From Calditrichota bacterium (lineage in GTDB: Bacteria > CLD3): a stretch of 64,000 nt of DNA. Below, one piece after another: positions 3,890-63,668 of the stretch. Under the pieces are notes generated by a model that was given only the letters and a program-made list of their open reading frames with translations, searched no databases and was not told the DNA's origin. A program made the position numbers and the translations under genes. The stretch lies in assembly GCA_008501735.1 (NCBI GenBank), contig QQUF01000040.1:70431-134430 (forward strand), written 5' to 3'. Position 1 is the stretch's first letter, and each line of letters opens with the position of its first letter.

Positions 3890-6727
3890 TTATTTTAATA
3901 ATGTCATTCTTTTTCTAACGGAATAATTTCCTGCTTTGAGTCTGTAAAAATAAACTCCACTTCCAACTTGTTTTCCAAGCTCGTCAGTTCCGTTCCAAAC
4001 AACAGAACCTTTTGCTTTGTCCAAGACAAACTCTTTCACCTTTTTACCCAAAATATCAAAAATTACCAATTTACCTTTCTCGTAATTCGTAATTCGTAAT
4101 TCGTAATTTATAGAAGTTGAAGGGTTGAATGGGTTTGGGTAGTTTTGACTTAAGTAAAAATCCTCTGGAGTAGAGTTCAGATTTTCCTCTAAAGAAACAC
4201 CTGTGTCCACCAGAAAGCACTGAAAGTTTTCATTTGTAGTTTGTGAAGTTCCTTGTTCCTTGAAAAATTCTTCATTTTCAGCTTTGACACTAAAACAGTA
4301 ATTTCCAGTTGGCAAAGTTCCTGCCTGAATTGTTGCAAATGTGTCAGTTGTCGTAATTACTAAAAGTGAATCGGCAAAGTTAGAGGTTGAATCAATAACA
4401 ACGGTGTAAGTAACAACGCTTCCATTTGGCGAAGAAGTTGATTCCCAAGTCAAGTTGAAATCTGAATCAGTAAAAACGGTGTCGTTTTCGGAAGGCGTTA
4501 AAAGGCTAAAATCTTCTAAGAACAATTCATTCACATCAAGTGTAAACATTGACCTTCCGTAAGTTCCGACAAGTAAAGTTCGAGTTGGATTGTGAATTTT
4601 AATTTCGTTAATCGGAACAGTCGGAATTTGTTCTCCAAGAAAGTGCCAATCTTCACCCAAATTAGTTGTGTAAAACGGTCCAACGTCAGTTCCGATGTAA
4701 AGAACTTCGTTGTCAACAGAGTCAACAATTACAGAATTTATCGGAGCATCAGGCAAATTTGAAGCGATTGAAGTCCAAGTCTGACCGAAGTCTTCTGTTC
4801 TAAAAATGTGTGGAAGGTTTTCGTCAATTCTGAAACCTGAAAGCGTAACGTAAGCAACTGAATCGGCGTAAAGGTCAGTCATTACTCTTGTAATCCAACG
4901 AGTCGGAAGTTGGGCAGAAATTTCAGTCCAAGAAGTTCCGCCGTTTGTCGTTACTTGAACTGTTCCGTCGTCGCAACCAACATAAATTATGTCAGAGTTT
5001 ACAGGCGAAACGGCAATTGTAGTGATTGTTCCAAAAGTGTAACTTCCACTTCCCGGACCTTGTGTCAAGTCAGGTGAAATAGGACTCCAAGAAATTGCGG
5101 AATTTGTACTTTTGTAAAGTTTGTTGCTTCCATAAAAAAGTGTGTTCGGGTCAAAAGGATCGAAAACAACAGGAGTTTGCCAATTTTTTCTGTCTGAATT
5201 ACTAATTCCTTGAGTTGCACTTTGAAAACTAAAACCGCCGTCAGTTGAACGCTGTAAATTTCCGTACTGATATTCGCAATAAATTTTGTTTGAATTAGTT
5301 CTGTCCACTAAAACATAAAATCCGTCTCCGCCAAAAATATTCTGAAAATTCGTTCCGTTGACTTGTTGTAAAGTTCCGTTGTCTTGAGCTCCACCATAAA
5401 TTTTTGTTGGATTCAAGTAGTCAAATTCCACGTTGTAAAATTGGTTGTTGGGTAAGCCGTTTAGTTTGAACCAAGTGTTTCCGCCGTTGCTTGAAGTGTA
5501 AAGTCCTCCGTCGTTACCACAGAAAATTTTGTTCGGATTATTTGGGAAAATGTAAATTGCGTGATGGTCAACGTGCATTGAACTTCCTGTAATATTCCAC
5601 GAATTTCCGCCGTCAGTTGAATTGTAAAGATTCAAACCTGAAAGAAAAAGATTGTCGGGATTTGTTGGGTCAACCCAAAGTCTGTTGAACCACCAACCAA
5701 AAGATGAAAGTGCGTTGTTAAGGTCAGTTGTTGGACTTTGTGTCCACGAATTTCCACCATCAGTAGTTTTGTAAAATCCGTCAAAGTAACCGATTTGGTC
5801 AATGTAACTTGCGTAAAGAATGTTTGGACTTGAATTTGAAATTGCGAGACCGATTCTTCCACTGTTTGCACTTGCTTGTGGCAAGCCGTTTATTAGCAAA
5901 TTCCAAGTTGTTCCGCCGTCAGTTGAACGGTAAATTCCACTTCCTTCGCCTCCGTAAACTCTGTTCTCAGGAGTTCGGATTCGTTGCCACATTGCTGCAT
6001 AAATTGTATTTGGATTGTTAGGGTTTATCGCTAAATCAATTGCTCCTGTCGAATCGTTGACTGCCAAAACTTGTTGCCAAGTTTGACCTGCGTCTGTCGA
6101 GCGGTAAACTCCTCTTTCAGAATTTGTAGAAAAAAGTGAACCCATTGCCGCAACAAAAATGTTATTCGAGTTTTGCGGGTCAATTACGATTTTGCTAATG
6201 TAGTAAGAATCGGGCAAACCAATATTTGTCCAAGAATTTCCGCCGTCAGTTGACTTTGAAACTCCAAAACCTGCGTAACAAACACTTCCTCCTCCGGCAT
6301 TTGGCTCACCTTGTCCGACGTAAATTGTATTTTCGTCATTCGGGTCAATTGCAATGTCGCCGATTGAAAGCGAAAGCTCGGAATCAAAAATCGGAGTAAA
6401 ACTTGTGGCATTGTTTGTAGTCTTGAAAACTCCACCACTTGCACTTCCGATGTAAACTGTGCCTGGAGTATTTGGGTGAGCTTCAATGTCTGTAATTCTT
6501 CCGCCAATGTTTGTCGGGCCAACTTGAATCCAATCAGGTTGATTCTGAGTTTGAGCGATTTGCTGCATTCCCTTGGTTTTGAGAAGAGCTTCTTTGTAAG
6601 CACGTTGGTTTATGTCTTTTGCAGGATAAGATTTTTCAATAAAAAACCAATCGTTTGGTGCTTTAGGTGGCTTTTGTTCCGCACAAGAAATTGTGAAGAT
6701 TAGCGTTAAAAGTAAAAGTATTTTCAT
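3890..6727 (-). CDS. secreted BNR/sortilin (GH74-like) repeat protein with T9SS C-terminal sorting domain
   Basis: Multiple BNR motifs are present (STDGGNSW, STDAGQTW, TTDGGNSW, STDGGTTW). The C-terminus carries NYPNPFNPSTSINYEL..GVYFYRLKAG...LLK. The likely true start is MKILLLLTLIFTISC (lipoprotein-like signal) at 6727, not the 6808 of the ORF track. Confidence 0.75.
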   Translation of the reverse strand: MKILLLLTLIFTISCAEQKPPKAPNDWFFIEKSYPAKDINQRAYKEALLKTKGMQQIAQTQNQPDWIQVGPTNIGGRITDIEAHPNTPGTVYIGSASGGVFKTTNNATSFTPIFDSELSLSIGDIAIDPNDENTIYVGQGEPNAGGGSVCYAGFGVSKSTDGGNSWTNIGLPDSYYISKIVIDPQNSNNIFVAAMGSLFSTNSERGVYRSTDAGQTWQQVLAVNDSTGAIDLAINPNNPNTIYAAMWQRIRTPENRVYGGEGSGIYRSTDGGTTWNLLINGLPQASANSGRIGLAISNSSPNILYASYIDQIGYFDGFYKTTDGGNSWTQSPTTDLNNALSSFGWWFNRLWVDPTNPDNLFLSGLNLYNSTDGGNSWNITGSSMHVDHHAIYIFPNNPNKIFCGNDGGLYTSSNGGNTWFKLNGLPNNQFYNVEFDYLNPTKIYGGAQDNGTLQQVNGTNFQNIFGGDGFYVLVDRTNSNKIYCEYQYGNLQRSTDGGFSFQSATQGISNSDRKNWQTPVVFDPFDPNTLFYGSNKLYKSTNSAISWSPISPDLTQGPGSGSYTFGTITTIAVSPVNSDIIYVGCDDGTVQVTTNGGTSWTEISAQLPTRWITRVMTDLYADSVAYVTLSGFRIDENLPHIFRTEDFGQTWTSIASNLPDAPINSVIVDSVDNEVLYIGTDVGPFYTTNLGEDWHFLGEQIPTVPINEIKIHNPTRTLLVGTYGRSMFTLDVNELFLEDFSLLTPSENDTVFTDSDFNLTWESTSSPNGSVVTYTVVIDSTSNFADSLLVITTTDTFATIQAGTLPTGNYCFSVKAENEEFFKEQGTSQTTNENFQCFLVDTGVSLEENLNSTPEDFYLSQNYPNPFNPSTSINYELRITNYEKGKLVIFDILGKKVKEFVLDKAKGSVVWNGTDELGKQVGSGVYFYRLKAGNYSVRKRMTLLK
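4081..4108. repeat. perfect 4x heptanucleotide tandem repeat (cgtaatt)4 inside the T9SS CTD coding region
   Basis: Read directly from the sequence. It encodes ..INYELRITNYE.. on the minus strand. The unit length is not a multiple of 3. Confidence 0.9.
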
Positions 6728-6877
6728 TTTAAACTCTCTGTTTTGAATAGTTTCAATAAAATTTAAGCAAGAAACCCAAAAAATCACAACATTCAAATTT
6801 TTCACCAATCATTATCATTGCATTTTAGAGTCTTAGAAATTACATTTTCCACTTAATCAAAACAGCAAGGAAAACCA

Positions 6878-8221
6878 ATGCTAACTAAAGACCAATTTGC
6901 CGACCTTTCGGAAAAAATTATAAAATTATCTCCTGCAAATGAGACAGAAGTAAGTTATGCAGGAAGTGAAAATTCCCTGACAAGATTTTCGAATAATATC
7001 ATTACTCAAAATGTTATCAAAAAGGACGAATCAATTTCAATTTTATTAGTAAAAGAAGGTAAAACAAGTCGTGTGAGAATTCACGAATTTGACGACGAGT
7101 CAATTAATAAAGCCTTCAAAAATGGAATGGAAATTATGAGCCTTTCCAAAGAACACGATAAATTCCTTCCGTTGCCTGAAGCACAAAAATATCAAGAAAT
7201 CAGAAATTGCTTTTTTGAAGACACAGCCAATTTTTCACCGATTGAAAGAGCAGAGCAGATTTCATTCGCAGTGAAAGAAGCGGAAGCTAAAAAATTATCA
7301 ATGGCAGGAATTTATACTTCAGGTGAAACTCGTTCTGCAATGGCAAATTCAAATGGTTTAATAGCATTTGACAAAAGAACAAATGCACAAGTTTCATTAA
7401 CTGCACAATCTGAGACAAGTTATGGTTGGGCAGAAGACGGAAACAGAGACGTTGCCAAAATTGACATCGAAAAAGCAACTCAAACGGCAATCGAAAAATG
7501 CCTTACAAGCCAAAACCCAACCGAAATTGAACCCGGAAAATACGATGTAGTTTTGGAAGCTCCTTGTGTAACTGACTTTCTTTCTTACTTGAATTGGAAA
7601 GCATTCGGTGGACTTGCTTACTTGGAAAATAGAAGTTTTATGGCAGGTAAACTCGGTCAAAAAATCTTTGGTGAAAACATCACAATCAAAGAAAATGCTT
7701 TCAACGAAATGAATCCGGGAAAACCTTACGATGGAGAAGGAATGCCAAAGAAACCTGTAACTCTCATCGAAAACGGTGTTTTAAAAGAAATCGTTCACGA
7801 CCGATACACAGCTCAAAAAGTTGGGACTGAATCAACAGGTCACGGTTTTGGATTTCCAAATTCAATTGGACCTTACCCTTCAAATCTCGAACTTTCAGCA
7901 GGAAACTCAAGCCTTGAAGAAATGATTGCTTCAACAGAAAGAGGACTTTTGGTAACTCATTTTCACTACACGAACACACTTGACCATTTTAATTTAATTT
8001 TGACAGGAATGACTCGCGACGGACTTTGGTTAATCGAAAATGGTAAAATTTCAAGACCAGTGATGAATCTTCGTTTCACCGACAGTATTCCACGAGTTAT
8101 GAACAACATCGAATTGATTTCAAAAGAATTGCAATTCAAACACACATTTTGGGGAAGCGGATTCGTTGTTCCTTCAATCAAAGTAAAAGACTTCAACTTC
8201 TCAAGCAAAACGGAAAGGTAG
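6878..8221 (+). CDS. pmbA: TldE/PmbA family metalloprotease-like protein
   Basis: 447 aa in the TldD/PmbA fold without an HExxxH motif. It sits in the canonical neighbourhood with tldD. Confidence 0.75.
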   Translation: MLTKDQFADLSEKIIKLSPANETEVSYAGSENSLTRFSNNIITQNVIKKDESISILLVKEGKTSRVRIHEFDDESINKAFKNGMEIMSLSKEHDKFLPLPEAQKYQEIRNCFFEDTANFSPIERAEQISFAVKEAEAKKLSMAGIYTSGETRSAMANSNGLIAFDKRTNAQVSLTAQSETSYGWAEDGNRDVAKIDIEKATQTAIEKCLTSQNPTEIEPGKYDVVLEAPCVTDFLSYLNWKAFGGLAYLENRSFMAGKLGQKIFGENITIKENAFNEMNPGKPYDGEGMPKKPVTLIENGVLKEIVHDRYTAQKVGTESTGHGFGFPNSIGPYPSNLELSAGNSSLEEMIASTERGLLVTHFHYTNTLDHFNLILTGMTRDGLWLIENGKISRPVMNLRFTDSIPRVMNNIELISKELQFKHTFWGSGFVVPSIKVKDFNFSSKTER

Positions 8222-8229
8222 GAATTCCG

Positions 8230-9567
8230 ATGCTAATTTTAGAAGAACTCGAAATTGTAAAATTTAAAAACGATTACGGCGACGAACTCATCACAAACCA
8301 AAAGATGAAATTCGGCAAAAGTTTAAATTTACTCATCGGTCCAAATGGTGGTGGGAAAACTACTTTATTAAAAATTTTACAGGCTTGTGTTTCATTTGAT
8401 TTTGAGGAACTGAAAGAGAATGAATTTGAGATAAAAGTAAAAGGTGAAGTCTATTTTTTGGGTATTAAGCGAGCAAAAATCCAAGCAGAATTTGATTCAA
8501 TAAAGAAGAAAACAAAGATAGAAGAAAAGGTTGAGCTTCAAGCAATCAAGAAAAATACCGATAGAACTAGGCAAAAAAATATTTTAAACTTCAAAATCAA
8601 TTATAGCTTTGATGATGGAAATCCTAACTTCACTATTAATAAGAGAAGTAATGAAATTAATATTTACGAAAATGAAGCTCTTAAAAAAAATAAAGATTTT
8701 TATAGTGATAATTGGAACTTTGGTGATTTCTTTTCTGACTTAAAAGTAGAAACGCAAAATGATAAAAAGTTTTTAAACCATAGTAAGTTGTCTTTTCTCC
8801 AAACTCCTTCAATGTACCGTAGAGGAGTTGAAGATATTTCCGAATTAGAAGCTATCTTAAGAAAGACAATAAAAACTTATATTTTAGGAAAACCTAAATT
8901 TAATCCTTTTCCTTCTTACCTTTTCAGTGAACCAGAATATGGTGAGTTAAATAACATTATTTTTTGGGAACTTGGTAAGTTTTTAGAAAACCATAAAGAT
9001 TATAAAAAAATAATTGAAATTGATAATTTAGACTTAGAATTCAAAAGTGATTTTTTGCAAAGAATTAAGCAAAAATATACTTTTTTTGATTCTTTTATAA
9101 TCAGATTCAGTGATAAAATTACTTCCAAAGAGGAAATTGAATACCGAGATGGAAAAATTATTTTCTTTAAAAATAAAAGAGAAATGGATTTTAATAAAGC
9201 CACAACTTGGGGGCAAAAAAGATTCATTTATTTATTAAGTAAAATTGAGGCTCAAGATACACCTCTAATTGATGAAATAGAAAATGGCTTTCACCCGAAA
9301 ATGGTGAGGGATTTGATAAATAGTATTTATGAACAAAAGCCACAAAAACAAGCTTTTGTTACTACTCACAGTCATCACATTATCAACAGTCTAAATTACG
9401 ACTCAATGGAAGAACTTGGTAAGTCAATTGTGCTTTGTAAAATTAGCAAGGAAGAAAAGCTTACTTTCGCAAACTTGAAAGGTAAAAATCTAGAAGTTAA
9501 TTTTAATAAAGTCAGAACTGGGTTAGTAGATTTACCAGAATCTTTACTTTTTGAGGGAATTTGGTAG
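8230..9567 (+). CDS. ABC/AAA_21-type (SMC-like) ATPase, OLD/PARIS-AriA-like. First gene of an inserted 2-gene cassette.
   Basis: Walker A LLIGPNGGGKTTLLK follows an SMC-like N-terminus (LEELEIVKFKN). A signature-like TTWGQKRF, Walker B LIDEIENGFHP and H-loop AFVTTHSHH are present. The ORF-track start 8149 overlaps pmbA. The internal ATG at 8230 (MLILEEL) lies 8 nt after the pmbA stop. The region is AT-richer than its flanks. Confidence 0.7.
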   Translation: MLILEELEIVKFKNDYGDELITNQKMKFGKSLNLLIGPNGGGKTTLLKILQACVSFDFEELKENEFEIKVKGEVYFLGIKRAKIQAEFDSIKKKTKIEEKVELQAIKKNTDRTRQKNILNFKINYSFDDGNPNFTINKRSNEINIYENEALKKNKDFYSDNWNFGDFFSDLKVETQNDKKFLNHSKLSFLQTPSMYRRGVEDISELEAILRKTIKTYILGKPKFNPFPSYLFSEPEYGELNNIIFWELGKFLENHKDYKKIIEIDNLDLEFKSDFLQRIKQKYTFFDSFIIRFSDKITSKEEIEYRDGKIIFFKNKREMDFNKATTWGQKRFIYLLSKIEAQDTPLIDEIENGFHPKMVRDLINSIYEQKPQKQAFVTTHSHHIINSLNYDSMEELGKSIVLCKISKEEKLTFANLKGKNLEVNFNKVRTGLVDLPESLLFEGIW

Positions 9568-10266
9568 GTGAAGATTTTTTATTTTACAGAAGATGTAGCT
9601 TCACCTGAAGTTAACGAGAAGATTATCCAGTCAAGTTTAAACTTTTTAGGGTTCAGAGATGCAGTAGTTTTTCAGCAAGAAGGAATTAAAATACTTGGTG
9701 CAGATATAAATAATTTGAAAAATTTTCAGACTCTTATAAGTAATATTTTAGCAAAAGCAATTCTTGAAGAGGAGAAAGTTATATTCTGTTTTCATATAGA
9801 TACCGAAGTAAGTTTTGATATTTTTCAGCGTTCTTTGAACGGTGAAATTGATTTACTAGAAAATGGTACTATTTTGAAGAAATATTTAAGAGACTACCAA
9901 GAAATAATTAAGACCCTTTTTAAAGCTGCTATGCAAATTTCTGAAAATTTGAAATCTGATAGTTTTGTAGAAATGTTCCCTTGTCGCGCAATAGAAAGTT
10001 GGTGTGCGGCAAATCAACCTGAACTTATCATTCAGAATAGGCAAGTAAGAAAAGAACTAGCACAAATTATTAACTTACCGTTTTTAGATTACCTTCAAAA
10101 ACTTGATGAAATTGAAAAGTTTAAATTTGGAAAAACTGGAAGACAAGGGAAAGGTTTAGGTACGATGTTGAAACTTGTAAACAACAATTTCCCAACTAAA
10201 GAATTTTACGGAATTGAAAAGTCTTTTCACAGATTTGTGGAAAATTTAAGGTTAGCGATAAATTAG
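9568..10266 (+). CDS. ~232-aa partner protein, putative Toprim/DUF4276-like nuclease component
   Basis: A GTG start lies immediately after the ATPase stop (TAG GTG), so the genes are translationally coupled. The N-terminal hh-E-D (IFYFTEDV) and central D-T-E (FHIDTEV) motifs resemble Toprim acidic motifs. The family assignment is tentative. Confidence 0.45.
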   Translation: MKIFYFTEDVASPEVNEKIIQSSLNFLGFRDAVVFQQEGIKILGADINNLKNFQTLISNILAKAILEEEKVIFCFHIDTEVSFDIFQRSLNGEIDLLENGTILKKYLRDYQEIIKTLFKAAMQISENLKSDSFVEMFPCRAIESWCAANQPELIIQNRQVRKELAQIINLPFLDYLQKLDEIEKFKFGKTGRQGKGLGTMLKLVNNNFPTKEFYGIEKSFHRFVENLRLAIN

Positions 10267-10290
10267 AAAATTAAAATGAAAGATAAATAA

Positions 10291-11748
10291 ATGAAAAGAT
10301 TAGCCGAATTAGCGATTGACACAGCGGTTTTGAATGGAGCTTCTTATGCAGACATTAGAATAATTTACACTAAAAGAGAAAAGTTAGAAGTTACAACCGG
10401 TCACGTTACAGAAATGGATATTTCTGAAAATGTTGGCTTCGGAGTTAGAGTAATTGCAAATGGAGCTTGGGGGTTTGCAAGTTCAAACAATCTTAAAGTT
10501 GAAGAAATTCAAAAGACAGCAAAACTCGCAGTCCAAATTGCAAAAGCAAGTGCAATGCTCAAAAAACAAGATGTAAAACTTGCCAAAGAACCTGTTCACA
10601 ACGAGAGATGGCAAACACCTTACTTGATTGACCCATTTCAAGTTCCGATGCACGAAAAACTGGGTTTAATGCACCAAATTGATGACATTCTCAGAAGAGA
10701 CAGTCAAATTAAACGAACTTCCGTTTCAATGGATTTCTTGATGGAACACCAATGGCTTGCAACTTCAGAAGGAACTTTTATTGACCAAAAATTAATGAGA
10801 AGTGGAGTAGGTTACAGTGCAACAGCAGTCGGAAATAACGATATGCAAATTCGTTCTTACCCAAATTCTTTTAGAGGGCAGTATATGACAATGGGTTATG
10901 AATTGATTCACGGAATTCCACTTGTCGAAAATGCTGAAAGAGTCAGAGAGGAAGCGATTGCACTTTTGACAGCAAAAGAATGCCCTGAAGGCACAAAAGA
11001 TATAATTTTAGACGGAACTCAAATGGCTTTGCAAATCCACGAGTCAGTTGGACACGCAACAGAACTCGACAGAGTTTTGGGAATGGAAGCAAATTACGCA
11101 GGAATGAGTTTTGCGACATTAGAAAAGCTCAACAACTTTCGTTACGGTTCTGACGTTGTGAATTTAGTTTGTGATTCAACGGTTCCAAACGGACTTGCAA
11201 CAATCGGTTACGATGACGACGGAGTTCGTGCAAAACGTTATCATTTGGTGAAAGATGGTGATTTTGTCGGCTACCAATTTAACAGAGAACTTGCTCACAC
11301 AATCGAAGCAGAAGAGTCGAGCGGAAACAATAGAGCTCACGGTTGGAGCAATATTCCGATTGTAAGAATTACAAACCTGAGTTTAATGCCTGGTGAATGG
11401 GAATTTGATGATTTGGTTTCTGACACTGAAGATGGAATTTATATGGAAACCAACAAATGTTGGAGCATTGACCAATGGCGATTAAATTTTGAATTTGGAA
11501 CTGAAATCGGTTGGGAAATTAAAAACGGTAAAAAAGGTGAAATGCTCAAAAATTGCTCTTACCAAAGCATCACACCGAAATTCTGGGGTTCTTGCGACGC
11601 AATTTGTAACGACAATTATTGGACACTTTGGGGAGTAAGTAATTGCGGAAAAGGCCAACCTGGACAAACCGCCGAAATGTCTCACGGTGCTTCTCCAACA
11701 AGATTCAGAAACATAAATGTCGGAATTGGAAATTCAACTTTGAAATGA
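10291..11748 (+). CDS. tldD: TldD metalloprotease
   Basis: HESVGHATELD (HExxxH) is present. The 485 aa are typical TldD length and organisation. Confidence 0.85.
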   Translation: MKRLAELAIDTAVLNGASYADIRIIYTKREKLEVTTGHVTEMDISENVGFGVRVIANGAWGFASSNNLKVEEIQKTAKLAVQIAKASAMLKKQDVKLAKEPVHNERWQTPYLIDPFQVPMHEKLGLMHQIDDILRRDSQIKRTSVSMDFLMEHQWLATSEGTFIDQKLMRSGVGYSATAVGNNDMQIRSYPNSFRGQYMTMGYELIHGIPLVENAERVREEAIALLTAKECPEGTKDIILDGTQMALQIHESVGHATELDRVLGMEANYAGMSFATLEKLNNFRYGSDVVNLVCDSTVPNGLATIGYDDDGVRAKRYHLVKDGDFVGYQFNRELAHTIEAEESSGNNRAHGWSNIPIVRITNLSLMPGEWEFDDLVSDTEDGIYMETNKCWSIDQWRLNFEFGTEIGWEIKNGKKGEMLKNCSYQSITPKFWGSCDAICNDNYWTLWGVSNCGKGQPGQTAEMSHGASPTRFRNINVGIGNSTLK

Positions 11749-11837
11749 TTAACGACTAATAGAATTTAAAATTCATCGGATGGACTGAAAGTTATTTGAT
11801 GAAAAAATTACATTGTATTTGTTAGCAAAAATTTTGG

Positions 11838-11870
11838 TTTAGTGGTAGTTTTTTAAAAACTACCACTAAA
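11838..11870. terminator. AT-rich perfect inverted repeat (15-bp arms) between convergent tldD and the 11883 ORF, likely a bidirectional terminator
   Basis: tttagtggtagtttt / aaaactaccactaaa. Confidence 0.5.
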
Positions 11871-11882
11871 CTTCAAAAATTT

Positions 11883-12158
11883 TTAACTCTTAATTTTCAA
11901 TTCTTCAATAGAAGAGCCGTTTTTTAATTTATTGTAAGCCATAACAAGTTCGCGATTGTCAAAATCTGAAAGTCTTAAACCTTCTTTTCCGTAACCTTCG
12001 AGTAATTTTTCAAAAAATATTCCGTCTTCGTATTTTGTGAGTTGGTAGCGATTCCGAAGCCGAAGTTTGTATTCTTTCAATTTGTCTAAAAGTTCACCTT
12101 GTCGTTCGATTTTAACTCTTGTCGGATTTAACTCAGACACTTTCGACCTCCTTAGCAA
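11883..12158 (-). CDS. hypothetical small protein (91 aa) overlapping the 3' end of the nfnB-like gene
   Basis: The ORF is present in the track but has no recognisable motifs. It overlaps the upstream gene by 26 nt. Confidence 0.3.
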   Translation of the reverse strand: MLRRSKVSELNPTRVKIERQGELLDKLKEYKLRLRNRYQLTKYEDGIFFEKLLEGYGKEGLRLSDFDNRELVMAYNKLKNGSSIEELKIKS

Positions 12159-13599
12159 AGTAAGTGTGTTTCGCAGTTTTCTCTGTCAAGTAATGGTGAA
12201 TTGAACGAGCGGCAATTTTTGCTTGTCCCATTGCAGTAATCACTTTTGCTCCGCCTGTGATAATGTCACCTCCTGCAAAAACGCCTTTTTTTGAAGTTTC
12301 CAAAGTTTCTTCGTTCACCAAAACGACGCCCCATTTGTTTGTAACAATTTCCGGTGTTGAGTCAGGAATTAGAGGGTTTACGTTACAACCAAGCGAGAAA
12401 ATCACTGTATCAACTTCGTCAACAAATTGTTTGCCTGTTGGAGTTGGTCTTCTTCTACCTGAGTCGTCAGGTTCGCCAAGTTTCATTTCGTCACAAACGA
12501 TTTTTTTAACAAAATAATCTTCGTCCCCAACAAATTCTACAGGGTTTGACAAAAATTTAAAATTGATAAATTCTTCCATTGCGTGGCGAAGTTCTTCAGT
12601 TCTCGCTGGAGCTTCTTCTTTTGAGCGTCTGTAGTAAACTGTAACTTCTGCTCCAAGACGTTTTGCAGTTCTTGCAACGTCCATTGCAGTGTTTCCTGCT
12701 CCGATTACTCCGACTTTTTTGCCTTGGTTCAAAGGAGTTACGTTGTCTGGAAATCTGTCTGCTCCCATCAAATAAATTCTTGTCAAATACTCGTTTGCCG
12801 AATAAATTCCGTTTAAATTTTCACCTTTAATATTGAGCATTTTCGGTAAACCCGCTCCTGTTCCAATGAAAATTGCATCGAATCCAAATTCTTTACTGAG
12901 CATTTCATCTAAAGTCATTGATTTTCCAATGATTGTGTTGAATTCAAAATTTACTCCCATTTCTTCAAGAGCTTTTACATCTTCATCAATGATGTCAAGT
13001 GGAAGTCTGAATCTTGGAATTCCGTAAACCAAAACTCCACCTGCTCTGTGGAATGCTTCGTAAACTGTAACTTCGTGTCCACGTTTTCGGAGTTCGTAAG
13101 CTGCAGTAAGCCCTGCAGGTCCACTTCCGACAACTGCGACACTAAAACCTGTTGGAGCTTCGATTTCAGGTGTAACTCTAAGTCCGTGTTCTCTTTCGTA
13201 GTCAGCAACAAAACGTTCAAGATTCCCGATTGAAAGCGGTTTATTTTTCTTTCCAACGATGCAAGTAAGTTCGCATTGTTGGTCTTGTGGACAAACTCTT
13301 CCGCAAATTGCAGGCAAAAAATTTGTCTCACGAATTTTTGCAATCGCTCCCGCAAAATCGCCGTCTTCAACTTTTTTAAGAAATGCAGGAATGTCAATTC
13401 CAACGGGACAACCAACCATACATTTTGGGTCTTTGCAATCCAAACAACGAAGTGCTTCGATTTCCGCAAGGTCTTCTGAAAAACCAAGTGGAACTTCTCC
13501 GAATCCAAGAACTCTTTCTTCTGCCGTTCTTTCGGGCATCTCAGTTCTTTGGATTTTCATTTTTTCTTTTGGTTTTAATTTTGGCTTTTGGTCTTTCAT
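12133..13599 (-). CDS. NADPH-dependent glutamate synthase beta-chain-like oxidoreductase (NfnB/SudA/GltD family)
   Basis: An N-terminal Fe-S cysteine cluster (CLDCKDPKCMVGCPVG) is followed by two Rossmann dinucleotide-binding motifs (VAVVGSGPAGL, VGVIGAGNTAMD). Confidence 0.8.
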   Translation of the reverse strand: MKDQKPKLKPKEKMKIQRTEMPERTAEERVLGFGEVPLGFSEDLAEIEALRCLDCKDPKCMVGCPVGIDIPAFLKKVEDGDFAGAIAKIRETNFLPAICGRVCPQDQQCELTCIVGKKNKPLSIGNLERFVADYEREHGLRVTPEIEAPTGFSVAVVGSGPAGLTAAYELRKRGHEVTVYEAFHRAGGVLVYGIPRFRLPLDIIDEDVKALEEMGVNFEFNTIIGKSMTLDEMLSKEFGFDAIFIGTGAGLPKMLNIKGENLNGIYSANEYLTRIYLMGADRFPDNVTPLNQGKKVGVIGAGNTAMDVARTAKRLGAEVTVYYRRSKEEAPARTEELRHAMEEFINFKFLSNPVEFVGDEDYFVKKIVCDEMKLGEPDDSGRRRPTPTGKQFVDEVDTVIFSLGCNVNPLIPDSTPEIVTNKWGVVLVNEETLETSKKGVFAGGDIITGGAKVITAMGQAKIAARSIHHYLTEKTAKHTYFAKEVESV

Positions 13600-56836: not shown

Positions 56837-58675
56837 ATGAGAGATTTTATAAGAAAGAAGCTGATAATTTTAAAATCTTCGTCTGTTTTAATTCTTTTAT
56901 TTCTTGCGACTTTAAACTTATTTGCTAATTCTTATATTGGAACTGCAACTTGTCCAATAAAAGCAGATTTGGAAGAACAGAAAAAAGCTAATGATATTGC
57001 ACTTTCCGAGATGCTTTCACAAATTGCTGTTAGTGTTCAAAGTGACTTTACAAATTCAATTGAAGAAAATGTTTCTGCCAATGAAACGGAATTCAAAAGA
57101 CGTTGTGAGTCAATTCTCAAAACTTATTCTTCCGCTTCTTTGACAAACGCCAAGCTTAACAAAAGGCGAACCGACAAAGAAATTATTTTTCAGTGGTCAA
57201 TTCCAAAAAGTGAAGTTCAAAAAATCTTTTCTTCGAGGCTTCACCAAGCAGAAGGTTTATTCTTTTCTGCGGAAGAAGCTGAAAGTAAAAATCAACTTGA
57301 ACAAGCTCTAAGGTGGTTTTACCAAGCTGATTTACTTTTCAAAAGCGTTCCTGCAACTTTCCAACAGAATCAAAATGGAGTCAACGAACTTTCTTGCATC
57401 AAAAAAATTACAAAAATTTTGAACGGATTGGATTTCAAATTAAAAGATGATTGGCTTGAGGCAGATTCAAGAAAAATTTCATTTGAAACATTGTTCCAAA
57501 ATAAACCTGTTTCGAGTCTAAAAGTTCATTACGACAATGGATTTGATTGGATTCCAACAGAGGTTAATCACTCTGAACTTTTGATTTGGCTTGACGGTTC
57601 TGCAAAGAGTAAAAATGAAGTTGTTTTGGAAATTGAGTACAAATTTTCGTCTCACAAAGACCAAAACAGTACAGTCTCGGAAATTTGGGATTTGGTTGCA
57701 AAACCTAAATTTGATTCAAGAAAAGGTTTATCGTTTGCAAAAGAATCACAACCAAAATTAGAGCCAAAGATTGAACCACAAAAACCCAGAGATTTTGGTG
57801 TAAGAATCGCATTTGAAGAAAATTCTCCAAAAGGTTTCAAAGAAAATTCGCCTAAAAATTGTGCGTCTTTGGTGAAGCAATTTAAAGACGAGAAAATTAA
57901 CGATGAAAGCATTTTTGCCGATAAATTTGCAATCGCGAAAGCAAAAGATATTTTGCGTCTGACAAAGCCGAAACCACAGTCTGAAAATTTTAATCTCAAA
58001 TCTTACAAAAATAACGAAGGTTGGGAAGTTCGTGAAATTCCAGTGAGCCTTTCAAAGAAAGGCTTAAAGGGAATTGTTGACAATTTGGTTGTGGATTTTG
58101 ATGAAAACGGGAAAATTACCGACGTGAACTTTAGTATTGGAGAAGCAGATTTTCAGCGATTTTATGAAATTGGGCAAGAAGTTGAAGATTGGGAAAAGAG
58201 GCAAAAGATTGTAAAGTTTTTGGAGACTTTCAAAACAGCTTACAACTCAAGGCAAATCGAAGCAGTTGAGCAAATGTATTCTGACAACGCAGAAATTATT
58301 GTTGGAAAAGTCATCAAAAGCCAGCCTTTAAGTGTGGAAATAAAATCGCACTTACCACAAGAACGAATTGAATATTTGCATTTTACAAAACAAGATTACA
58401 TCCGAAGGCTTGGCAATATTTTTTCAGAAAACGTGAATTCATTTCTTTACTACCAATACGACCAACTCGAAGTGATTAAAGGAGCAAGAGGAAGTGAGAT
58501 TTACGGAGTTCACGTTAGGCAAAACTACATTTCTCAAAATTATGCCGATGAAGGTTATCTTTGCCTTGTGATAAATTTTGGTGAAGAACCTCCGTTGATT
58601 CACGTAAGAGCTTGGCTTCCACAAGAGTGGAGTGAAGAGCAATTAATTAAAGTAACGGATTTTGAAATTAAGTAA
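56837..58675 (+). CDS. secreted hypothetical protein (612 aa), LPP20-like N-terminal region and NTF2-like C-terminus
   Basis: A signal peptide is present. No catalytic motifs were recognised. Confidence 0.4.
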   Translation: MRDFIRKKLIILKSSSVLILLFLATLNLFANSYIGTATCPIKADLEEQKKANDIALSEMLSQIAVSVQSDFTNSIEENVSANETEFKRRCESILKTYSSASLTNAKLNKRRTDKEIIFQWSIPKSEVQKIFSSRLHQAEGLFFSAEEAESKNQLEQALRWFYQADLLFKSVPATFQQNQNGVNELSCIKKITKILNGLDFKLKDDWLEADSRKISFETLFQNKPVSSLKVHYDNGFDWIPTEVNHSELLIWLDGSAKSKNEVVLEIEYKFSSHKDQNSTVSEIWDLVAKPKFDSRKGLSFAKESQPKLEPKIEPQKPRDFGVRIAFEENSPKGFKENSPKNCASLVKQFKDEKINDESIFADKFAIAKAKDILRLTKPKPQSENFNLKSYKNNEGWEVREIPVSLSKKGLKGIVDNLVVDFDENGKITDVNFSIGEADFQRFYEIGQEVEDWEKRQKIVKFLETFKTAYNSRQIEAVEQMYSDNAEIIVGKVIKSQPLSVEIKSHLPQERIEYLHFTKQDYIRRLGNIFSENVNSFLYYQYDQLEVIKGARGSEIYGVHVRQNYISQNYADEGYLCLVINFGEEPPLIHVRAWLPQEWSEEQLIKVTDFEIK

Positions 58676-58747
58676 ATTTTTTTTAAAAAATACTTTTGTT
58701 AAAAACTTTGGAATAGTTTACTTTTTAGAAAACCAAAAGGTAAACTA

Positions 58748-59047
58748 ATGAAAAACCTAAAAGAAATCCGAAGAGTTCTCCAAAATGAAAAACCGTTTTT
58801 AATCCAAAAGTATGGCATAAAAGATATAAAAATCTTTGGTTCATTTGTGAGAGGTGAACAAAATTCCAAAAGCGATTTAGACATTTTGATTGATTTGGAG
58901 AAACCAGTCAAAATGGATTTAATAGGTTTAATTGAATTAGAAAATTACCTTTCAGATTTAATAAATATTAAGGTTGAAATTTCCATTAAAGAAAATTTAA
59001 AGCAGCGAATCGGGAAACACATTCTTAGAGAAGCAATTGAAGTATGA
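58748..59047 (+). CDS. mntA: MntA-type minimal nucleotidyltransferase (antitoxin of HepT/MntA type VII TA)
   Basis: The NTase motif GSFVRGEQNSKSDLDILI (G[S/G]x9-13DxD) is present. Confidence 0.75.
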   Translation: MKNLKEIRRVLQNEKPFLIQKYGIKDIKIFGSFVRGEQNSKSDLDILIDLEKPVKMDLIGLIELENYLSDLINIKVEISIKENLKQRIGKHILREAIEV

Positions 59048-59385
59048 AAAAGGAGTTTTTAGATTACTTAATAGATATTTTGGACGTTTCAGAAAAAGCA
59101 CAAGAGTTCGTAAAGGGAATGACTTTTGAAGAATTTAAAATTGATTTTAGAACCAATTTTGCAGTTGCGAGGTCTTTGGAAATTATTGGAGAAGCTGTAA
59201 AAAGAATTCCTGACGATGTTAAAATAAATTATCCACAAATTCCTTGGAGAGCAATTGCTGGAATGAGAGACAAAATAATCCACGGTTACGATAACATTAA
59301 TTTGCTCTTGGTTTGGGAAACAGTAACTGTAAAACTTCCTAAAATTCATAAAGAGTTTGAACAGATTTTACAAGATTATTCGTAA
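59044..59385 (+). CDS. hepT: HepT-type (DUF86) HEPN toxin
   Basis: The Rx4HxY HEPN motif RDKIIHGY is present. The start overlaps the mntA stop by 4 nt. Confidence 0.75.
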   Translation: MKKEFLDYLIDILDVSEKAQEFVKGMTFEEFKIDFRTNFAVARSLEIIGEAVKRIPDDVKINYPQIPWRAIAGMRDKIIHGYDNINLLLVWETVTVKLPKIHKEFEQILQDYS

Positions 59386-59550
59386 ATATTTTCGGAGAAA
59401 TTAATGGAAAATTTAAACTTAAAAATAGTTCATAACTTCCCAAAAAATTGTAAAAATATAATTTTTTTAAAAGGCAGTTTTCTAAAAGATAAAGCAGATT
59501 TCAAAATCATATTTTTTAGGTAATTATTGCAAAAAATAGGAAAATTCAAA

Positions 59551-62022
59551 ATGAGAACACTGTTACTAATATTTATAATTTTATCCTTTTCTTCTTGTTA
59601 TGAAGAACCTGACGGACTAAATCCTTTTGAAGAAAATTACATTCCACCTGCTCCAACTAACTTAAAACTCACACAAATTTCCGATTCAGAAGTTAGACTT
59701 TCTTGGAATTTTGTATACGAAGGAGAATACCAAGGAGAATTTCAAAAAGCACTTCAAGGTTTTAAAATTGAGAAAAAAACTAACAGTGGAAGTTTTGTTG
59801 AAATTGCAAGTGTGGATTCTGATTCAACAAGTTTTATTGATACTGGACTTTCAATTTTAGATACTTGTTTTTATCGAGTTAAGGCTTTTACAGAGACAAA
59901 TGTTTCTGATTTTTCTACTGAAAAAAGCATTAAAACAAATTTTCTCGCTCCAACTGATTTAGTAATCACTCTAGTTTCGGATTCAAAGGTAAGTCTTAAT
60001 TGGAAAGATAACACAACTTTTGAAGATGGATTTAAAGTTGAAAGAAAAGAAGGAAGTGGAGATTTTACAGAAATAGTAGTTTTACCCTCTGATTCAACGA
60101 GTTTTACTGATTCTGAACTTTCGACTTTACAAACTTATTTTTATCGAGTCAGAGCTTTTACTGAGGTGAATATTTCTGAATTTTCAAATGAGGGAAATAC
60201 TCAAACAAATTTTCCTGCTCCTTCAAACTTAGGAATTACTCAAATTACAGATTCAGAAGTTCTATTGACTTGGCAAGACAATACAATTTTTGGGGAAGGA
60301 TTTATTGTCGAAAGAAAAGAGGATAGTGGAAGTTTTACTGAAATTGCAACTGTTGGAAAAGATTCAACAGATTTTATTGATACAGGACTTTTGATTACTA
60401 AAGTTTACTCTTACAGAGTCAAAGCTGTAAGCCTTGTTAATTCTTCAAATTTTAGTCAAGAGCAAAGCATTCAAACTGATTTTCCTGCACCTACAAATTT
60501 GCAAATTACAGATTTAAGCGATTCTGAGGTTCAGCTTACTTGGTCTGATAATTCAACATTTGAAGATGGATTTAAAATTGAAAGAAAATATGTTAATAAC
60601 GAATTTTTGGAAATTGCAATAATAGACAAAAATATAAATGAATATATTGATAACGAAGTATTAATCGAAACCACATATTTTTATCGAGTCAGAGCCTTTA
60701 CACAAACTAATAATTCTATTTTTACGAACGAGGAGCCTATACAAACCCATTTTCCAGCTCCAACAAATTTGCAAATAACCAGCGTTTCTCATTCAGAAGT
60801 TTTGCTTAACTGGGAAGACAATTCGACTTTTGAAGAAGGGTTTAAAATTGAGAGGCAAGCTAATGGAGGTGGTTTTATGGAAGTAGGAATTGTAAGTAGT
60901 AATTTAACACAATTTTCTGATTTTGATTTGGATGTAACTAAGTCCTATTCCTATAAAATTAGAGCATTTACAAATCTAAACCTTTCTACTGGTGAAGCCA
61001 AAACAATACATTATAACTCATTTTATTCTAAAAAATGGGCAGGTAGTCACACTGGTGATGTTGTTGCTGTTGAATTCAGTCCTAATCAAAATAAAGTTTT
61101 GAGTGCAAGTTCTGATAATACGCTTAGATTATGGAATGTTGAAACAGGTTTATCTTTTTGGTCAAGAACTCATATAGATGATGTTAGTTCAATTGCTTTT
61201 AATTATGACGGTAGTGTCATTGCCAGTGGAGGAAATGATAAATTCTTAAAAGTTTGGAATGAAAGTGGTACAGAAATGTGGAGTAAATTACACTCATCTC
61301 ACGTAAAACAAGTAGCATTTAGTCCTGATGGAAGCAAAATTGCAAGCGGTACATCCAGTGGTGAATTGAAAGTATGGAATGTCGTTGATGGTGCATTAAT
61401 TTGGAGTGAAAATCAAACGGAAGAAATAATTTCTCTTGAGTTCAGTCCTACTGAAGATAAATTAGCTAGTGCAAGCTTAGATGATACTTTGAAATTATGG
61501 AATGTGACAACTGGTTTACTACATTGGGAAGAACCTCATTCAAATGATGTTGGTTCTATTAGTTTTAGTCCTGACGGAGAAAAGATAGTTAGTGTCGGTA
61601 AAGATTTCGCATTGAAAATGTGGAATGTCAGTAATGATTCACTCCTATGGATACAAAATAACTCTAGTCTTAACACGCAAGTTTGTTTCAGTCCTGATGG
61701 AAGTAAAATTCTAATTGGAACAGTAGGAAATCGAATTGAAATGAGAGATTCAAATAATGGCTCTTTTCTTTGGTTTGGAAATCACATAGGCGATATAACT
61801 TCAATAACATTTAATGAATTAGGGACTTTGGCTTTTAGTACAAGTTTAGATAATACAATTAAAGTCTGGAACTCTTCTTCTGGTGAATTACTTTGGACTG
61901 GGAATCACAATAATATTGTTTATTCTTGTTCATCAAATAATGAAGGTAATAGAATTGTTAGTGGAGGTAAGGATAACGTATTAAACTTATGGGAGTTAGG
62001 TGGAGAATGGGTGATAGAATAA
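59551..62022 (+). CDS. lipoprotein with ~6 tandem fibronectin type III domains followed by a WD40 beta-propeller
   Basis: A lipobox (SFSSCYEE) is present. Each Fn3 unit of ~80 aa begins PAPTNLxIT..DSEVxLxW. The WD40 repeats carry LWNV/VWN tails. Confidence 0.7.
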   Translation: MRTLLLIFIILSFSSCYEEPDGLNPFEENYIPPAPTNLKLTQISDSEVRLSWNFVYEGEYQGEFQKALQGFKIEKKTNSGSFVEIASVDSDSTSFIDTGLSILDTCFYRVKAFTETNVSDFSTEKSIKTNFLAPTDLVITLVSDSKVSLNWKDNTTFEDGFKVERKEGSGDFTEIVVLPSDSTSFTDSELSTLQTYFYRVRAFTEVNISEFSNEGNTQTNFPAPSNLGITQITDSEVLLTWQDNTIFGEGFIVERKEDSGSFTEIATVGKDSTDFIDTGLLITKVYSYRVKAVSLVNSSNFSQEQSIQTDFPAPTNLQITDLSDSEVQLTWSDNSTFEDGFKIERKYVNNEFLEIAIIDKNINEYIDNEVLIETTYFYRVRAFTQTNNSIFTNEEPIQTHFPAPTNLQITSVSHSEVLLNWEDNSTFEEGFKIERQANGGGFMEVGIVSSNLTQFSDFDLDVTKSYSYKIRAFTNLNLSTGEAKTIHYNSFYSKKWAGSHTGDVVAVEFSPNQNKVLSASSDNTLRLWNVETGLSFWSRTHIDDVSSIAFNYDGSVIASGGNDKFLKVWNESGTEMWSKLHSSHVKQVAFSPDGSKIASGTSSGELKVWNVVDGALIWSENQTEEIISLEFSPTEDKLASASLDDTLKLWNVTTGLLHWEEPHSNDVGSISFSPDGEKIVSVGKDFALKMWNVSNDSLLWIQNNSSLNTQVCFSPDGSKILIGTVGNRIEMRDSNNGSFLWFGNHIGDITSITFNELGTLAFSTSLDNTIKVWNSSSGELLWTGNHNNIVYSCSSNNEGNRIVSGGKDNVLNLWELGGEWVIE
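59640..61000 (+). repeat. tandem ~240-nt coding repeats (Fn3 units)
   Basis: A recurring DNA/protein periodicity is seen directly (e.g. the FYRVRAFT recurrence). Confidence 0.7.
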
Positions 62023-62051
62023 AAAATATTTTAATTGAAAAGTTTAAGATT

Positions 62052-63668
62052 ATGGGATTATTAAAATTTACATTTTGCTTTTTGGTAATTTTTTTTCAAA
62101 GTGCTTTCGCAGAAGAATCGTCAAAATTTAAAATTTTACAGACTCCTGAAAAAATTGCTCAAATTAGAATTTGGGGCGATTTTGAAGATGGAAAGTCCAA
62201 AAAAGATGAAAATGGGAAATGGCTTTCGGGAATAAGAATTATTACTCCGATTGACAACATTGTTGTTGATTCGAGAAGTGGAGTTTATGGCAGAGAAACA
62301 AAACCCGGTGAGGTTTTTGTTTACGTCTCACCTTATGAAACGGCTTTGACAATTTATGCAAGTGGGCACGAACCTTTAAAAATTATTCTTAGAGAACAAG
62401 GAATTAGGCTAAAAGAATCTGAGGCTTGGGAAATCAAATTGAAAACCAACTCCACCAAAAAAATATCCGATGAAAAGGGGAATTTCATTCTTGATTCCAA
62501 ACCGACAGGAGCAACAATCACGATTGACGGATTTCCAACTTTTAGCGAAAAAACTCCTTTTACTTTCAAAAATTGGATTGCACAACCTTACAAAATTAAA
62601 ATGGAACTTGAAGGCAATGAAGATTACCAAATTCTGGAAAGTGTAATTCTGATTGAAGGAAATCAAACTTTAGAAAACACTTACTCACTTGAGCCTGCAT
62701 TTGGCTTTGTGAAATTTAGTGCAGAAAATGGTGCAAAATTCATTCTTGACCAAGAGGAAGTCGGAACAACAACTTACTCAGGAAAAGTCGGAATCGGCGA
62801 GCACAGTTTGACAATTAAAAAAGAGTGGTACAGAACTTTAGACACTCTTTTTACAATTGAAGGCGGAGAAAATCTAGAAAGAGATTTCAAACTTGAACCA
62901 ACTTTTGGGAATATCGAAATTGTAACAAACGAAGGTGCAGAAATCTACCTTGACGGAGAATTAGTTGGAAAAGGAAGTTATTCAGGAAAAGTGAAAATTG
63001 GTGAGCATAATTTGAAAATCGGCTCAGGCAAAAAATTCAACTACCATTTGGAAACTTTTCAAATCTCAGCTTTAGAGAACAAAAGAATCAATCGTTTGGT
63101 TAATGCAAAAACAGGTAGGCTTTTGGCAAGTTCACTTCCGACAGAAGCAGAATTGTTTTTGAATGGAGAACTAAGAGGAAATACGATTAACGAAGAATTG
63201 ACAGTTGGAATTTACAACTTAAAATCCCAACTTTTTCCTCGTTACATCACTCAAGAACAAACTGTAACGATTGAAGAAGGCAAGACTTCAAAAGTAATTT
63301 TCAAACTTACTTCTCAAAGCAAATCTTTAACACAAAATTTTGACAAATGGAAATCAAGACGAAATATTTTTCTCTATTCTTCACTTGCATTTTTGGCTTC
63401 GGGAGTTTCGAGCCAATTCCTAAATAATTCGGCAGTTAACGACTACAAAACAGCAACTTCAACTTCTGCTGTGAATTCTTCAAAAGACAGTGCTGACAGG
63501 TGGAAAATGATTTCTCTCGGAACTTACGCTGTTGGCGGAGTCTTGAGCCTTGCAACAATTTATTCTTTCTTCAAAGAACAAAGTTATAAAAATGAGCTGA
63601 ATAGTTTTAGTCTGAATTTTGTTCCGTCGAATGATAAATTTGCTGTTGAGTTTAGAATTTGGAATTAA
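62052..63668 (+). CDS. PEGA-domain repeat protein with signal peptide and C-terminal TM anchor
   Basis: At least 4 PEGA-like units are present (TITIDGFPT, KFILDQEEVGTT, EIYLDGELVGKG, ELFLNGELRGNT). The start MGLLKF is at 62052. Confidence 0.65.
   Translation: MGLLKFTFCFLVIFFQSAFAEESSKFKILQTPEKIAQIRIWGDFEDGKSKKDENGKWLSGIRIITPIDNIVVDSRSGVYGRETKPGEVFVYVSPYETALTIYASGHEPLKIILREQGIRLKESEAWEIKLKTNSTKKISDEKGNFILDSKPTGATITIDGFPTFSEKTPFTFKNWIAQPYKIKMELEGNEDYQILESVILIEGNQTLENTYSLEPAFGFVKFSAENGAKFILDQEEVGTTTYSGKVGIGEHSLTIKKEWYRTLDTLFTIEGGENLERDFKLEPTFGNIEIVTNEGAEIYLDGELVGKGSYSGKVKIGEHNLKIGSGKKFNYHLETFQISALENKRINRLVNAKTGRLLASSLPTEAELFLNGELRGNTINEELTVGIYNLKSQLFPRYITQEQTVTIEEGKTSKVIFKLTSQSKSLTQNFDKWKSRRNIFLYSSLAFLASGVSSQFLNNSAVNDYKTATSTSAVNSSKDSADRWKMISLGTYAVGGVLSLATIYSFFKEQSYKNELNSFSLNFVPSNDKFAVEFRIWN

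Follow-up and report, generated by a model that had tools for sequence, protein, structure and literature searches.

The immune class in which an ABC-type ATPase is combined with a Toprim protein includes OLD, Gabija, PARIS, HEC-01 and MAD3/4. Hma-embedded candidate 01 (HEC-01) is a candidate system of two genes, one for an ABC ATPase, one for a TOPRIM protein, which did not protect against the phages it was tested with (Payne et al., 2024, bioRxiv 10.1101/2024.01.29.577857). In methylation-associated defence (MADS), the AAA/ABC ATPase gene mad3 lies beside DUF4276/Mad4, which encodes a protein of the Toprim superfamily (PMC12065111). In PARIS the ABC ATPase (AriA) and a small Toprim-type effector (AriB) are split, and insertion sequences of AriA have been proposed to recognise the trigger, whereas in the OLD family (P2 Old and class 2 OLD/Gabija GajA) ATPase and Toprim are fused. 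Here, a related pair of genes is described from a 64,000-nt stretch of a Calditrichota bacterium metagenome-assembled genome (the window, to whose positions all coordinates refer unless a locus is named; protein residues are numbered from their own start). At 8230-10266, between the protease genes pmbA (tldE) and tldD, lie an ABC-type ATPase gene and an unannotated partner gene, together termed the cassette. It is probable that they form a self-contained, defence-type module of an ATPase and a likely Toprim-like nuclease, situated in a variable hotspot and having no partnership with TldD/E.

An initial annotation of the window, made from the letters alone, had placed the ATPase in an OLD/PARIS/AbiL-like class, and profile searches with the ATPase agreed with it. 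The Pfam families AAA_21 (E = 1e-15; 59 bits, cut-off 27) and AAA_15 (1.1e-10; 42.2 bits, cut-off 32.1) were matched above threshold, and all significant matches in the defence-system library PADLOC were to defence or candidate-defence ATPases: PtuA (4e-17), AriA (6e-16), AbiLi (4e-15), PDC-M25A, GajA, HEC-02A/HEC-01A (about 1e-11, with HEC-01A models at 2e-11 to 9e-10) and mad3 (3.8e-11). Sequence matches in the PDB were led by PtuA, followed by AriA, and were weak, covering core motifs only. Alignment of the Walker motifs, on whose integrity the initial annotation had made its reading depend, found them intact, as are the signature, D-loop and H-loop, and the set is conserved over nine module ATPases. 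A C-terminal G[LIV]W (or GLF) tail stands directly before the stop codon in all module ATPases (window 9553-9570; loci L003, L004 and L006-L010, described below) and may have a role in coupling or in binding the partner.

The 232-aa partner was not matched in Pfam (E ≤ 10), PADLOC (E ≤ 1, or E ≤ 10 as a member of alignment A3) or NCBIfam (E ≤ 0.1), and PDB profile searches with the family alignments A2, A3 and A4 gave chance-level matches only. A word-indexed search of 5.8 billion proteins found four members of its family, while an exhaustive profile search of 1.84 billion representatives recovered 17 superfamily clusters at E ≤ 1e-3 (3 close, 14 distant); their members are about 236-269 aa long, and one is a fusion with a GNAT domain. 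The superfamily is very rare, and a scan of genome contigs with the partner alignment returned just the already known contig of L003. The earlier view that the pair may be an undescribed system needs qualification as regards the partner, since no model recognises the window protein but some of its distant relatives touch known families: P0015 matches HEC-01B (5.9e-5, spanning P0015 residues 73-175, motif 3 included) and PDC-M31B (1.2e-3), and P0022 matches HEC-01B at 0.04. Among 18 relatives searched against Pfam, DUF4276 was the sole family matched more than once (3/18; best E 0.037, 14.7 bits, below its gathering score of 30.2), and DUF4435 was matched by one (E 0.11). As a separate observation, the distant member P0014 (424 aa) is the one that carries the C-terminal GNAT acetyltransferase fusion (Acetyltransf_1, 3.3e-12), and a separate GNAT gene also occurs at the pmbA|tldD junction of locus L015, which may be coincidence or a hint of a recurring association.

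The acidic motifs IFYFTEDV and FHIDTEV, to which the initial annotation had drawn attention, are present in the partner and their cores are invariant in the family. In an alignment of 18 sequences, D78, E143, W145, N149, E181, L203, P209 and K218 are invariant and H76, D180 and S219 nearly so, and the N-terminal ED (E8, D9) is conserved in full-length members. An AlphaFold2 model built from this alignment was confident (predicted local distance difference test score 86.4, predicted template modelling score 0.88) and shows a small α/β protein with the order beta1 (2-7)-alpha-beta2 (34-37)-alpha-beta3 (71-76)-alpha...beta4 (133-136), followed by a helical C-terminal part. E8/D9 are placed just after beta1, and H76-I-D78-T-E80 at the end of beta3, where other members have DxD. 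A Glu after beta1 and a DxD after beta3 are what defines a Toprim domain, on the account given of DUF4276 and RloB (PMC12065111), and HEC-01B is itself a TOPRIM protein (Payne et al., 2024). Because acidic residues occupy these positions in the model, and because relatives match HEC-01B and, below threshold, DUF4276, the partner is most likely, and on balance probably, a Toprim-like metal-dependent nuclease.

When the pair is set against the described systems, it resembles each of them in part. HEC-01 has the same gene order, with the ABC ATPase first and a small TOPRIM-like protein second, and is also embedded between genes of another operon; however, HEC-01A is a weaker match to the window ATPase than PtuA or AriA, the window partner has no HEC-01B match, and the operon that hosts the cassette encodes housekeeping proteases instead of a defence system. 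PARIS shares the split arrangement, an AriA structure is among the PDB matches, and the variable insertions of the window ATPase parallel the AriA insertion sequences, but no DUF4435/AriB match to the partner was obtained at E ≤ 10, the partner has 232 aa as compared with the 35-kDa AriB, and no phage or satellite context was found. The MAD3-MAD4 pair places an ATPase beside a protein of the Toprim superfamily, and DUF4276 recurs among relatives of the partner; it differs in that DUF4276 stays far below its gathering score in those relatives and does not match the window protein, and that neither a methyltransferase nor any other MADS gene is present in the pmbA-to-tldD block or its immediate neighbours. 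The OLD family follows the same ATPase-plus-Toprim logic, and GajA models match the window ATPase; yet the cassette has two open reading frames (ORFs) in place of the fused protein, lacks a UvrD-like helicase partner and gave no Toprim_Old sequence match. Septu and AbiL supply the top PADLOC matches of the ATPase (PtuA, AbiLi), together with the top PDB sequence match, although the partner has neither an HNH/PtuB nor an AbiLii model match. Judged by the effector, the pair does not belong to PARIS, MADS, OLD or Septu, and its membership in HEC-01 is not established; the most apt description is a new effector family, so far without a model, within the class of ABC ATPases with Toprim-like partners.

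The ATPase and its partner form a recurrent unit. At all six further loci studied (L004, L006, L007, L008, L009 and L010) an ATPase gene of this type, coding for 410-445 aa, has the partner gene immediately downstream, and the spacing between the two genes is 0-25 nt at these loci and at the pmbA/tldD loci. Strict pairing and coupling of the two genes was observed in 10/10 loci carrying a member of the partner superfamily. At the module junctions the partner start overlaps or abuts the ATPase stop (TGGTAGGTG, TGGTAAGTG, TGGTAATG or CTGATG). In the window the partner GTG abuts the ATPase TAG (9565-9567) directly, as TGG-TAG-GTG, which bears out the initial annotation on this point and on the uninterrupted co-directional block. 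L004, in which the ATPase is 39% and the partner 42% identical, is the closest relative that stands alone, and its junction is of the same kind, TGG-TAA-GTG; it has no pmbA or tldD, is preceded by 173 nt of non-coding AT-rich DNA and is followed by its own hairpin terminator. Elsewhere, the module is next to a weak AbiEii-like gene in L007, whose module ATPase has mad3 as its best match (1.9e-18), to DoxX in L009, and to DprA and a back-to-back PtuA/AriA-like ATPase module in L010. In that 7-kb contig the family module (L010:3245-5280) stands back-to-back with L010:59-2233 on the minus strand, which encodes a 349-aa ABC ATPase (PtuA 8e-27, AriA 5e-24) and unannotated proteins of 239 and 138 aa, and the partner is followed immediately by a further gene without annotation (5277-5948, 223 aa); these surroundings resemble a defence island. 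A match of the ATPase on a B. thuringiensis plasmid was set aside as a Septu-like ATPase and HNH pair outside this family.

The cassette is also set apart from its surroundings by base composition. Its guanine-plus-cytosine (GC) fraction is 0.290 (ATPase 0.283, partner 0.302), compared with a window-wide value of 0.344 and with 0.367 in pmbA and 0.392 in tldD. An AT content this high is reached by no more than 0.39% of 2037-bp windows, which are confined to the cassette locus and 58.6-60.7 kb, and the AT-richness is real, beyond chance fluctuation. The same block of pmbA, ATPase, partner and tldD was found in three other assemblies, L001 (GCA_964351555.1) and L002, which have an identical partner, and L003/L005. 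There too the cassette genes are low in GC, at 0.295 and 0.288 against flanks of 0.375 and 0.397 in L001, and at 0.273 and 0.280 against 0.367 and 0.409 in L003. The initial impression that the cassette is AT-richer than tldD and pmbA, and hence foreign, was therefore confirmed, and a compositionally foreign insertion between the two genes is supported. Because no repeats, tRNA or integrase mark the insertion, it bears no integrase- or tRNA-type signature: no meaningful direct or inverted repeats flank the cassette, and the window contains no tRNA or Rfam element. The initial annotation had named a conserved native four-gene operon of uniform GC as the alternative to acquisition. The block is indeed shared by related genomes, but a native operon of that kind is ruled out, as each of the three genomes compared has an AT-rich cassette and 80 more distant tldD loci have none.

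Those 80 metagenome loci, in which TldD is 48-70% identical to that of the window, give a view of the junction without the cassette. Neither the ATPase nor the partner occurs in any of them (0/80). The two protease genes, which the initial annotation had taken to be normally adjacent, are directly adjacent in 46/80 (pmbA>tldD in 16, with gaps of 16-212 bp, and tldD>pmbA in 30); the statement does not extend to the 2/80 with other cargo exactly at the junction, or to the 32/80 in which pmbA was not seen in the flanking sequence covered. Both interrupted loci have a TldD about 70% identical to that of the window. In L011 the 5.75-kb insert (L011:250-6001) holds a RhuM/PDC-S05 gene (PADLOC, 1.8e-149), a CoiA_N-domain gene, an unknown 223-aa gene and a Schlafen-AlbA_2 gene, and in L015 the 4.7-kb insert (L015:1253-6001) holds GNAT, HNH endonuclease (weak PtuB matches) and BACON-domain genes. 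Synteny thus gave a divided answer, with contiguous pmbA and tldD in the larger set and the four-gene block in L001, L002 and L003/L005. Because adjacency is common, the cassette absent and other cargo present at the same place, the sequences indicate that adjacency is ancestral, that insertion took place in the clade of the window, and that the junction behaves as a hotspot for variable cargo; the interval between pmbA and tldD may thus be a place where variable cargo, or defence genes, settle repeatedly. An accidental one-off insertion is ruled out by persistence of the block across genomes in which PmbA is only 62% identical.

Divergence of the cassette from its counterparts is out of proportion to that of its flanks. 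Synonymous (dS) and non-synonymous (dN) divergence between the window and L001 was estimated by the Nei-Gojobori method, except that for the ATPase the L002 sequence, an identical allele free of the L001 scaffold gap, took the place of that of L001. PmbA (96.6% aa identity, dS 0.47, dN 0.018) and TldD (97.7%, 0.43, 0.016) are under strong purifying selection and decoupled from the cassette, in which the partner is 70% identical (dS 1.06, dN 0.17) and the ATPase 47% (dS above 1.6 or saturated, dN 0.07-0.73 by segment). In the ATPase insert, dN (0.73) exceeds the dS of the flanks, and DNA similarity to L001/L002 is wholly lost over 8430-9149, while the flanks are 87-97% identical. Sliding nucleotide identity to L001 runs at 0.87-0.97 in the flanks, drops at about 8220, falls to 0.39-0.57 in the ATPase insert, is 0.68-0.81 over the ATPase C-terminus and partner, and returns to 0.95 at about 10220, so that the divergence is bounded exactly by the cassette edges. 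Compared with L003, identities are 46% for the ATPase, 38% for the partner, 62% for PmbA and 82% for TldD. Because insert dN exceeds flank dS and identity drops at the cassette edges, the cassette alleles would be older than the flanks, through allelic exchange via the conserved flanks, or under diversifying selection, or both. Such a pattern is typical of conflict genes, and the pair combines mobility and rarity with a foreign composition and fast divergence. Two smaller features of this comparison may be recorded. The scaffold gap, 10 N at L001:1567-1576, lies in the 5' part of the ATPase gene and truncates the 360-aa gene call P0005. Identity to L001 peaks (0.94-0.97) in the flanks beside the cassette (7850-8150 and 10220-10300) and is lower (0.86-0.90) deeper in pmbA, which would fit recent recombination tracts ending at the cassette borders.

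Within the locus, the four genes can be read as a single operon in which the cassette would be co-transcribed with the protease genes, because the gaps are short, no plus-strand terminator-like site was found in a scan of 6500-12300, promoter-like sites are not enriched there (12 found, 16.7 expected), and a hairpin follows tldD. The gap between the pmbA stop and ATG 8230 is 8 nt, with GGAAAGGTAGG upstream of that ATG, and the partner stop is 24 nt from the tldD ATG. The initial annotation had given the span of the cassette as 8149-10291; the two coupled genes are where it placed them, but TTG 8149 is merely the longest-ORF start, overlapping pmbA, whereas homologues begin at the equivalent of ATG 8230 (MLILEELEI / MFLEELEI), and the partner ends at 10266. 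All three PmbA_TldD Pfam domains were matched in both flanking proteins, the first domain of the PmbA-like protein being slightly under the cut-off (18.4 against 20.9 bits). HExxxH is carried by TldD only, as expected of a TldD/TldE (PmbA) metalloprotease pair, to which the two proteins belong.

A probable history of the locus may be outlined. The module was probably inserted once into the short pmbA>tldD intergenic junction, in an ancestor of a small Calditrichota-like clade, and exchange or diversification of its alleles has since far outpaced change in the flanks; a place inside the operon would ensure that the cassette is expressed and guard it against deletion. For the mechanism, PARIS, Septu, OLD and HEC-type systems offer an analogy. 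An ATPase oligomer might hold or gate the partner, the hypervariable insert (residues about 68-306) might sense a cue derived from the invader, and ATP binding or hydrolysis might then free or activate the partner, which would cut nucleic acid. The presumed outcome would be abortive-infection-type defence against phages or mobile elements. That the partner has nuclease chemistry, that the insert acts as a sensor and that the pair serves defence are all inferred.

Several results weigh against a defence module with a Toprim-like effector. The nearest named candidate, HEC-01, was inactive in the published phage assays; the window partner has no Toprim, DUF4276, DUF4435 or HEC-01B model match even at E ≤ 10; Foldseek with the partner model returned nothing below E 0.09 in the PDB, which is not significant; no family members were found on viral contigs in scans with alignments A2 and A4; and tblastn of the partner and P0015 against plasmids and phage records gave nothing useful. 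Guilt-by-association support is thin, because most related contigs are only 2-7 kb, and the elevated dS of the cassette is perhaps partly inflated by AT-biased, saturated sites. The structural comparison proposed in the initial annotation thus bore fruit in part, in that the acidic residues fall where a Toprim would be expected to have them along the chain, whereas the fold search was not significant. It is conceivable, though doubtful, that the partner is instead a Rossmann-like ligand- or nucleotide-binding adaptor or regulator, of the MID-domain kind, with the ATPase or an unlinked protein as the effector. The Foldseek result and DxE in place of DxD in the window protein speak for such a role, and structural scores against Toprim are no higher than those against generic Rossmann-like domains. 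Against it stand the acidic residues, which are invariant and lie at the ends of strands where a Toprim would have them, the matches of relatives to HEC-01B and DUF4276 across the motif region, the C-terminal region of OLD as the longest structural alignment to the partner model, and the fact that every characterised system with an ATPase of this class has a nuclease as its partner. About as doubtful is the idea that the two genes make up a selfish module for addiction or stabilisation, or a housekeeping or repair factor acting on nucleic acid, a toxic nuclease persisting where it is hard to delete from a useful operon. Imprecise deletion of so tightly embedded a cassette would damage pmbA or tldD, the cassette is kept in three diverged genomes, and both the inactivity of HEC-01 and the negative searches of viral contigs, phage records and plasmids accord with this idea. 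On the other hand, all significant PADLOC matches of the ATPase are to defence or candidate-defence models, and its PDB matches are led by PtuA and AriA; the insert is hypervariable with allele turnover, as is typical of conflict genes; in L011 the junction is occupied by defence-type cargo, and in L010 the family module has a second defence-type ATPase module nearby; and housekeeping genes are not so rare or patchy.

TldD/E act on microcin B17 and CcdA, and the initial annotation had accordingly supposed that the location of the cassette might be functionally meaningful. The four genes would then be one functional unit, with TldD/TldE processing or degrading an effector, inhibitor or trigger peptide, and the placement would be adaptive. 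Preservation of block order with 4-24-nt gaps in the window, L001/L002 and L003, despite the divergence of PmbA and loss of wider synteny, is in line with such a unit, as is the scan of the operon for terminators and promoters. It is nevertheless unlikely, more so than the two preceding explanations, since the L004 module stands alone with its own terminator and non-coding upstream DNA, five more distant modules lie in unrelated contexts, none of the 80 tldD loci has the module, L011 and L015 have unrelated cargo at this junction, and the flanks are under purifying selection decoupled from the cassette. TldD and PmbA have no PADLOC model match, and a literature search for TldD with anti-phage defence found no paper linking them. 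The supposition about location is accordingly not supported. Least probable is a form in which TldD/TldE serves as a third component that licenses or degrades the effector or a phage trigger, or, more weakly, in which the junction is a dedicated defence hotspot in this phylum and the pair founds a new, functional defence family; if true, the stronger form would constitute a protease-gated ATPase-nuclease immune module in a four-gene operon kept across diverged genomes.

If active, the self-contained ATPase-partner module would add an unmodelled effector family to the ABC-ATPase and Toprim immune class. Because Pfam, PADLOC and NCBIfam models miss the partner entirely, such cassettes are invisible to standard defence annotation. 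The locus is also a clean natural example of embedding beyond defence operons, with a cassette in a housekeeping protease operon that would lend it transcription and shield it from deletion. The architecture is familiar and holds little surprise for a specialist, and the defence function is putative. Features of the locus are collected in Table 1.

Table 1. Genes, motifs and terminator-like hairpin of the pmbA-tldD locus (window positions).
Feature	Positions	Strand	Remarks
pmbA/tldE-like gene, 447 aa	6878..8221	+	Upstream flank, first gene of operon, outside cassette; PmbA_TldD_3rd 1.2e-57
ABC-type ATPase, AAA_21/AAA_15 class, 445 aa	8230..9567	+	Likely start ATG 8230; Pfam, PADLOC, homologue alignment
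Walker A GPNGGGKTT (K43)	8338..8364	+	Conserved in all module ATPases
Hypervariable insert of ATPase, residues ~68-306, between Walker A and signature	8431..9147	+	Putative sensor or arm region
ABC signature-like TWGQKR	9205..9222	+	[ST][YFW]GQKR kept in all module ATPases
Walker B and D-loop LIDEIENGFHP	9265..9297	+	Conserved in module ATPases
H-loop region TTHSH	9361..9375	+	Conserved in module ATPases
Partner gene, 232 aa, GTG start	9568..10266	+	Unannotated family; putative Toprim-like metal-dependent nuclease effector
Motif 1 FTED (E8, D9), directly after beta1	9583..9594	+	Candidate Toprim glutamate; invariant in 4 close members, ED kept in full-length distant members
Motif 2 FHIDTE (H76, D78, E80), end of beta3	9790..9807	+	Candidate Toprim DxD; D78 invariant in 18, H76 nearly; third position D or E
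Motif 3 EMFPCRAIESWCAAN (E135, P138, E143, W145, N149), beta4 and following helix	9970..10014	+	E143, W145, N149 invariant in 18
Motif 4 LDEI (D180, E181), C-terminal helical part	10102..10113	+	E181 invariant, D180 nearly
Motif 5 EKSF (K218, S219)	10216..10227	+	K218 invariant, S219 nearly
tldD-like gene, 485 aa	10291..11748	+	Downstream flank, outside cassette; PmbA_TldD domains
HESVGH zinc motif, intact, TldD residues 250-255	11038..11055	+	Motif search
16-bp-stem hairpin 3' of tldD	11837..11871	.	Likely terminator of four-gene operon; reported on minus strand by scan

The four co-directional genes span 6878-11748, and beyond pmbA and tldD lie a Sortilin/T9SS protein gene and gltD-like genes. 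Because the hairpin after tldD is placed between convergent genes, it may terminate transcription in both directions. Between it and the gltD-like gene (12133-13599, minus strand) is a 91-aa ORF (11883-12158, minus strand) without a family match, which overlaps the start of the gltD-like gene by 26 nt and may be a small co-transcribed gene or not real. The only other stretch of the window with GC ≤ 0.29 in 2037-bp windows, 58616-60715, takes in a gap poor in ORFs (58676-59526, none of ≥150 aa) together with the 5' part of the next gene (59527-62022), which encodes an 831-aa fn3 and WD40 beta-propeller protein and is followed by a PEGA-domain protein gene (61989-63668).

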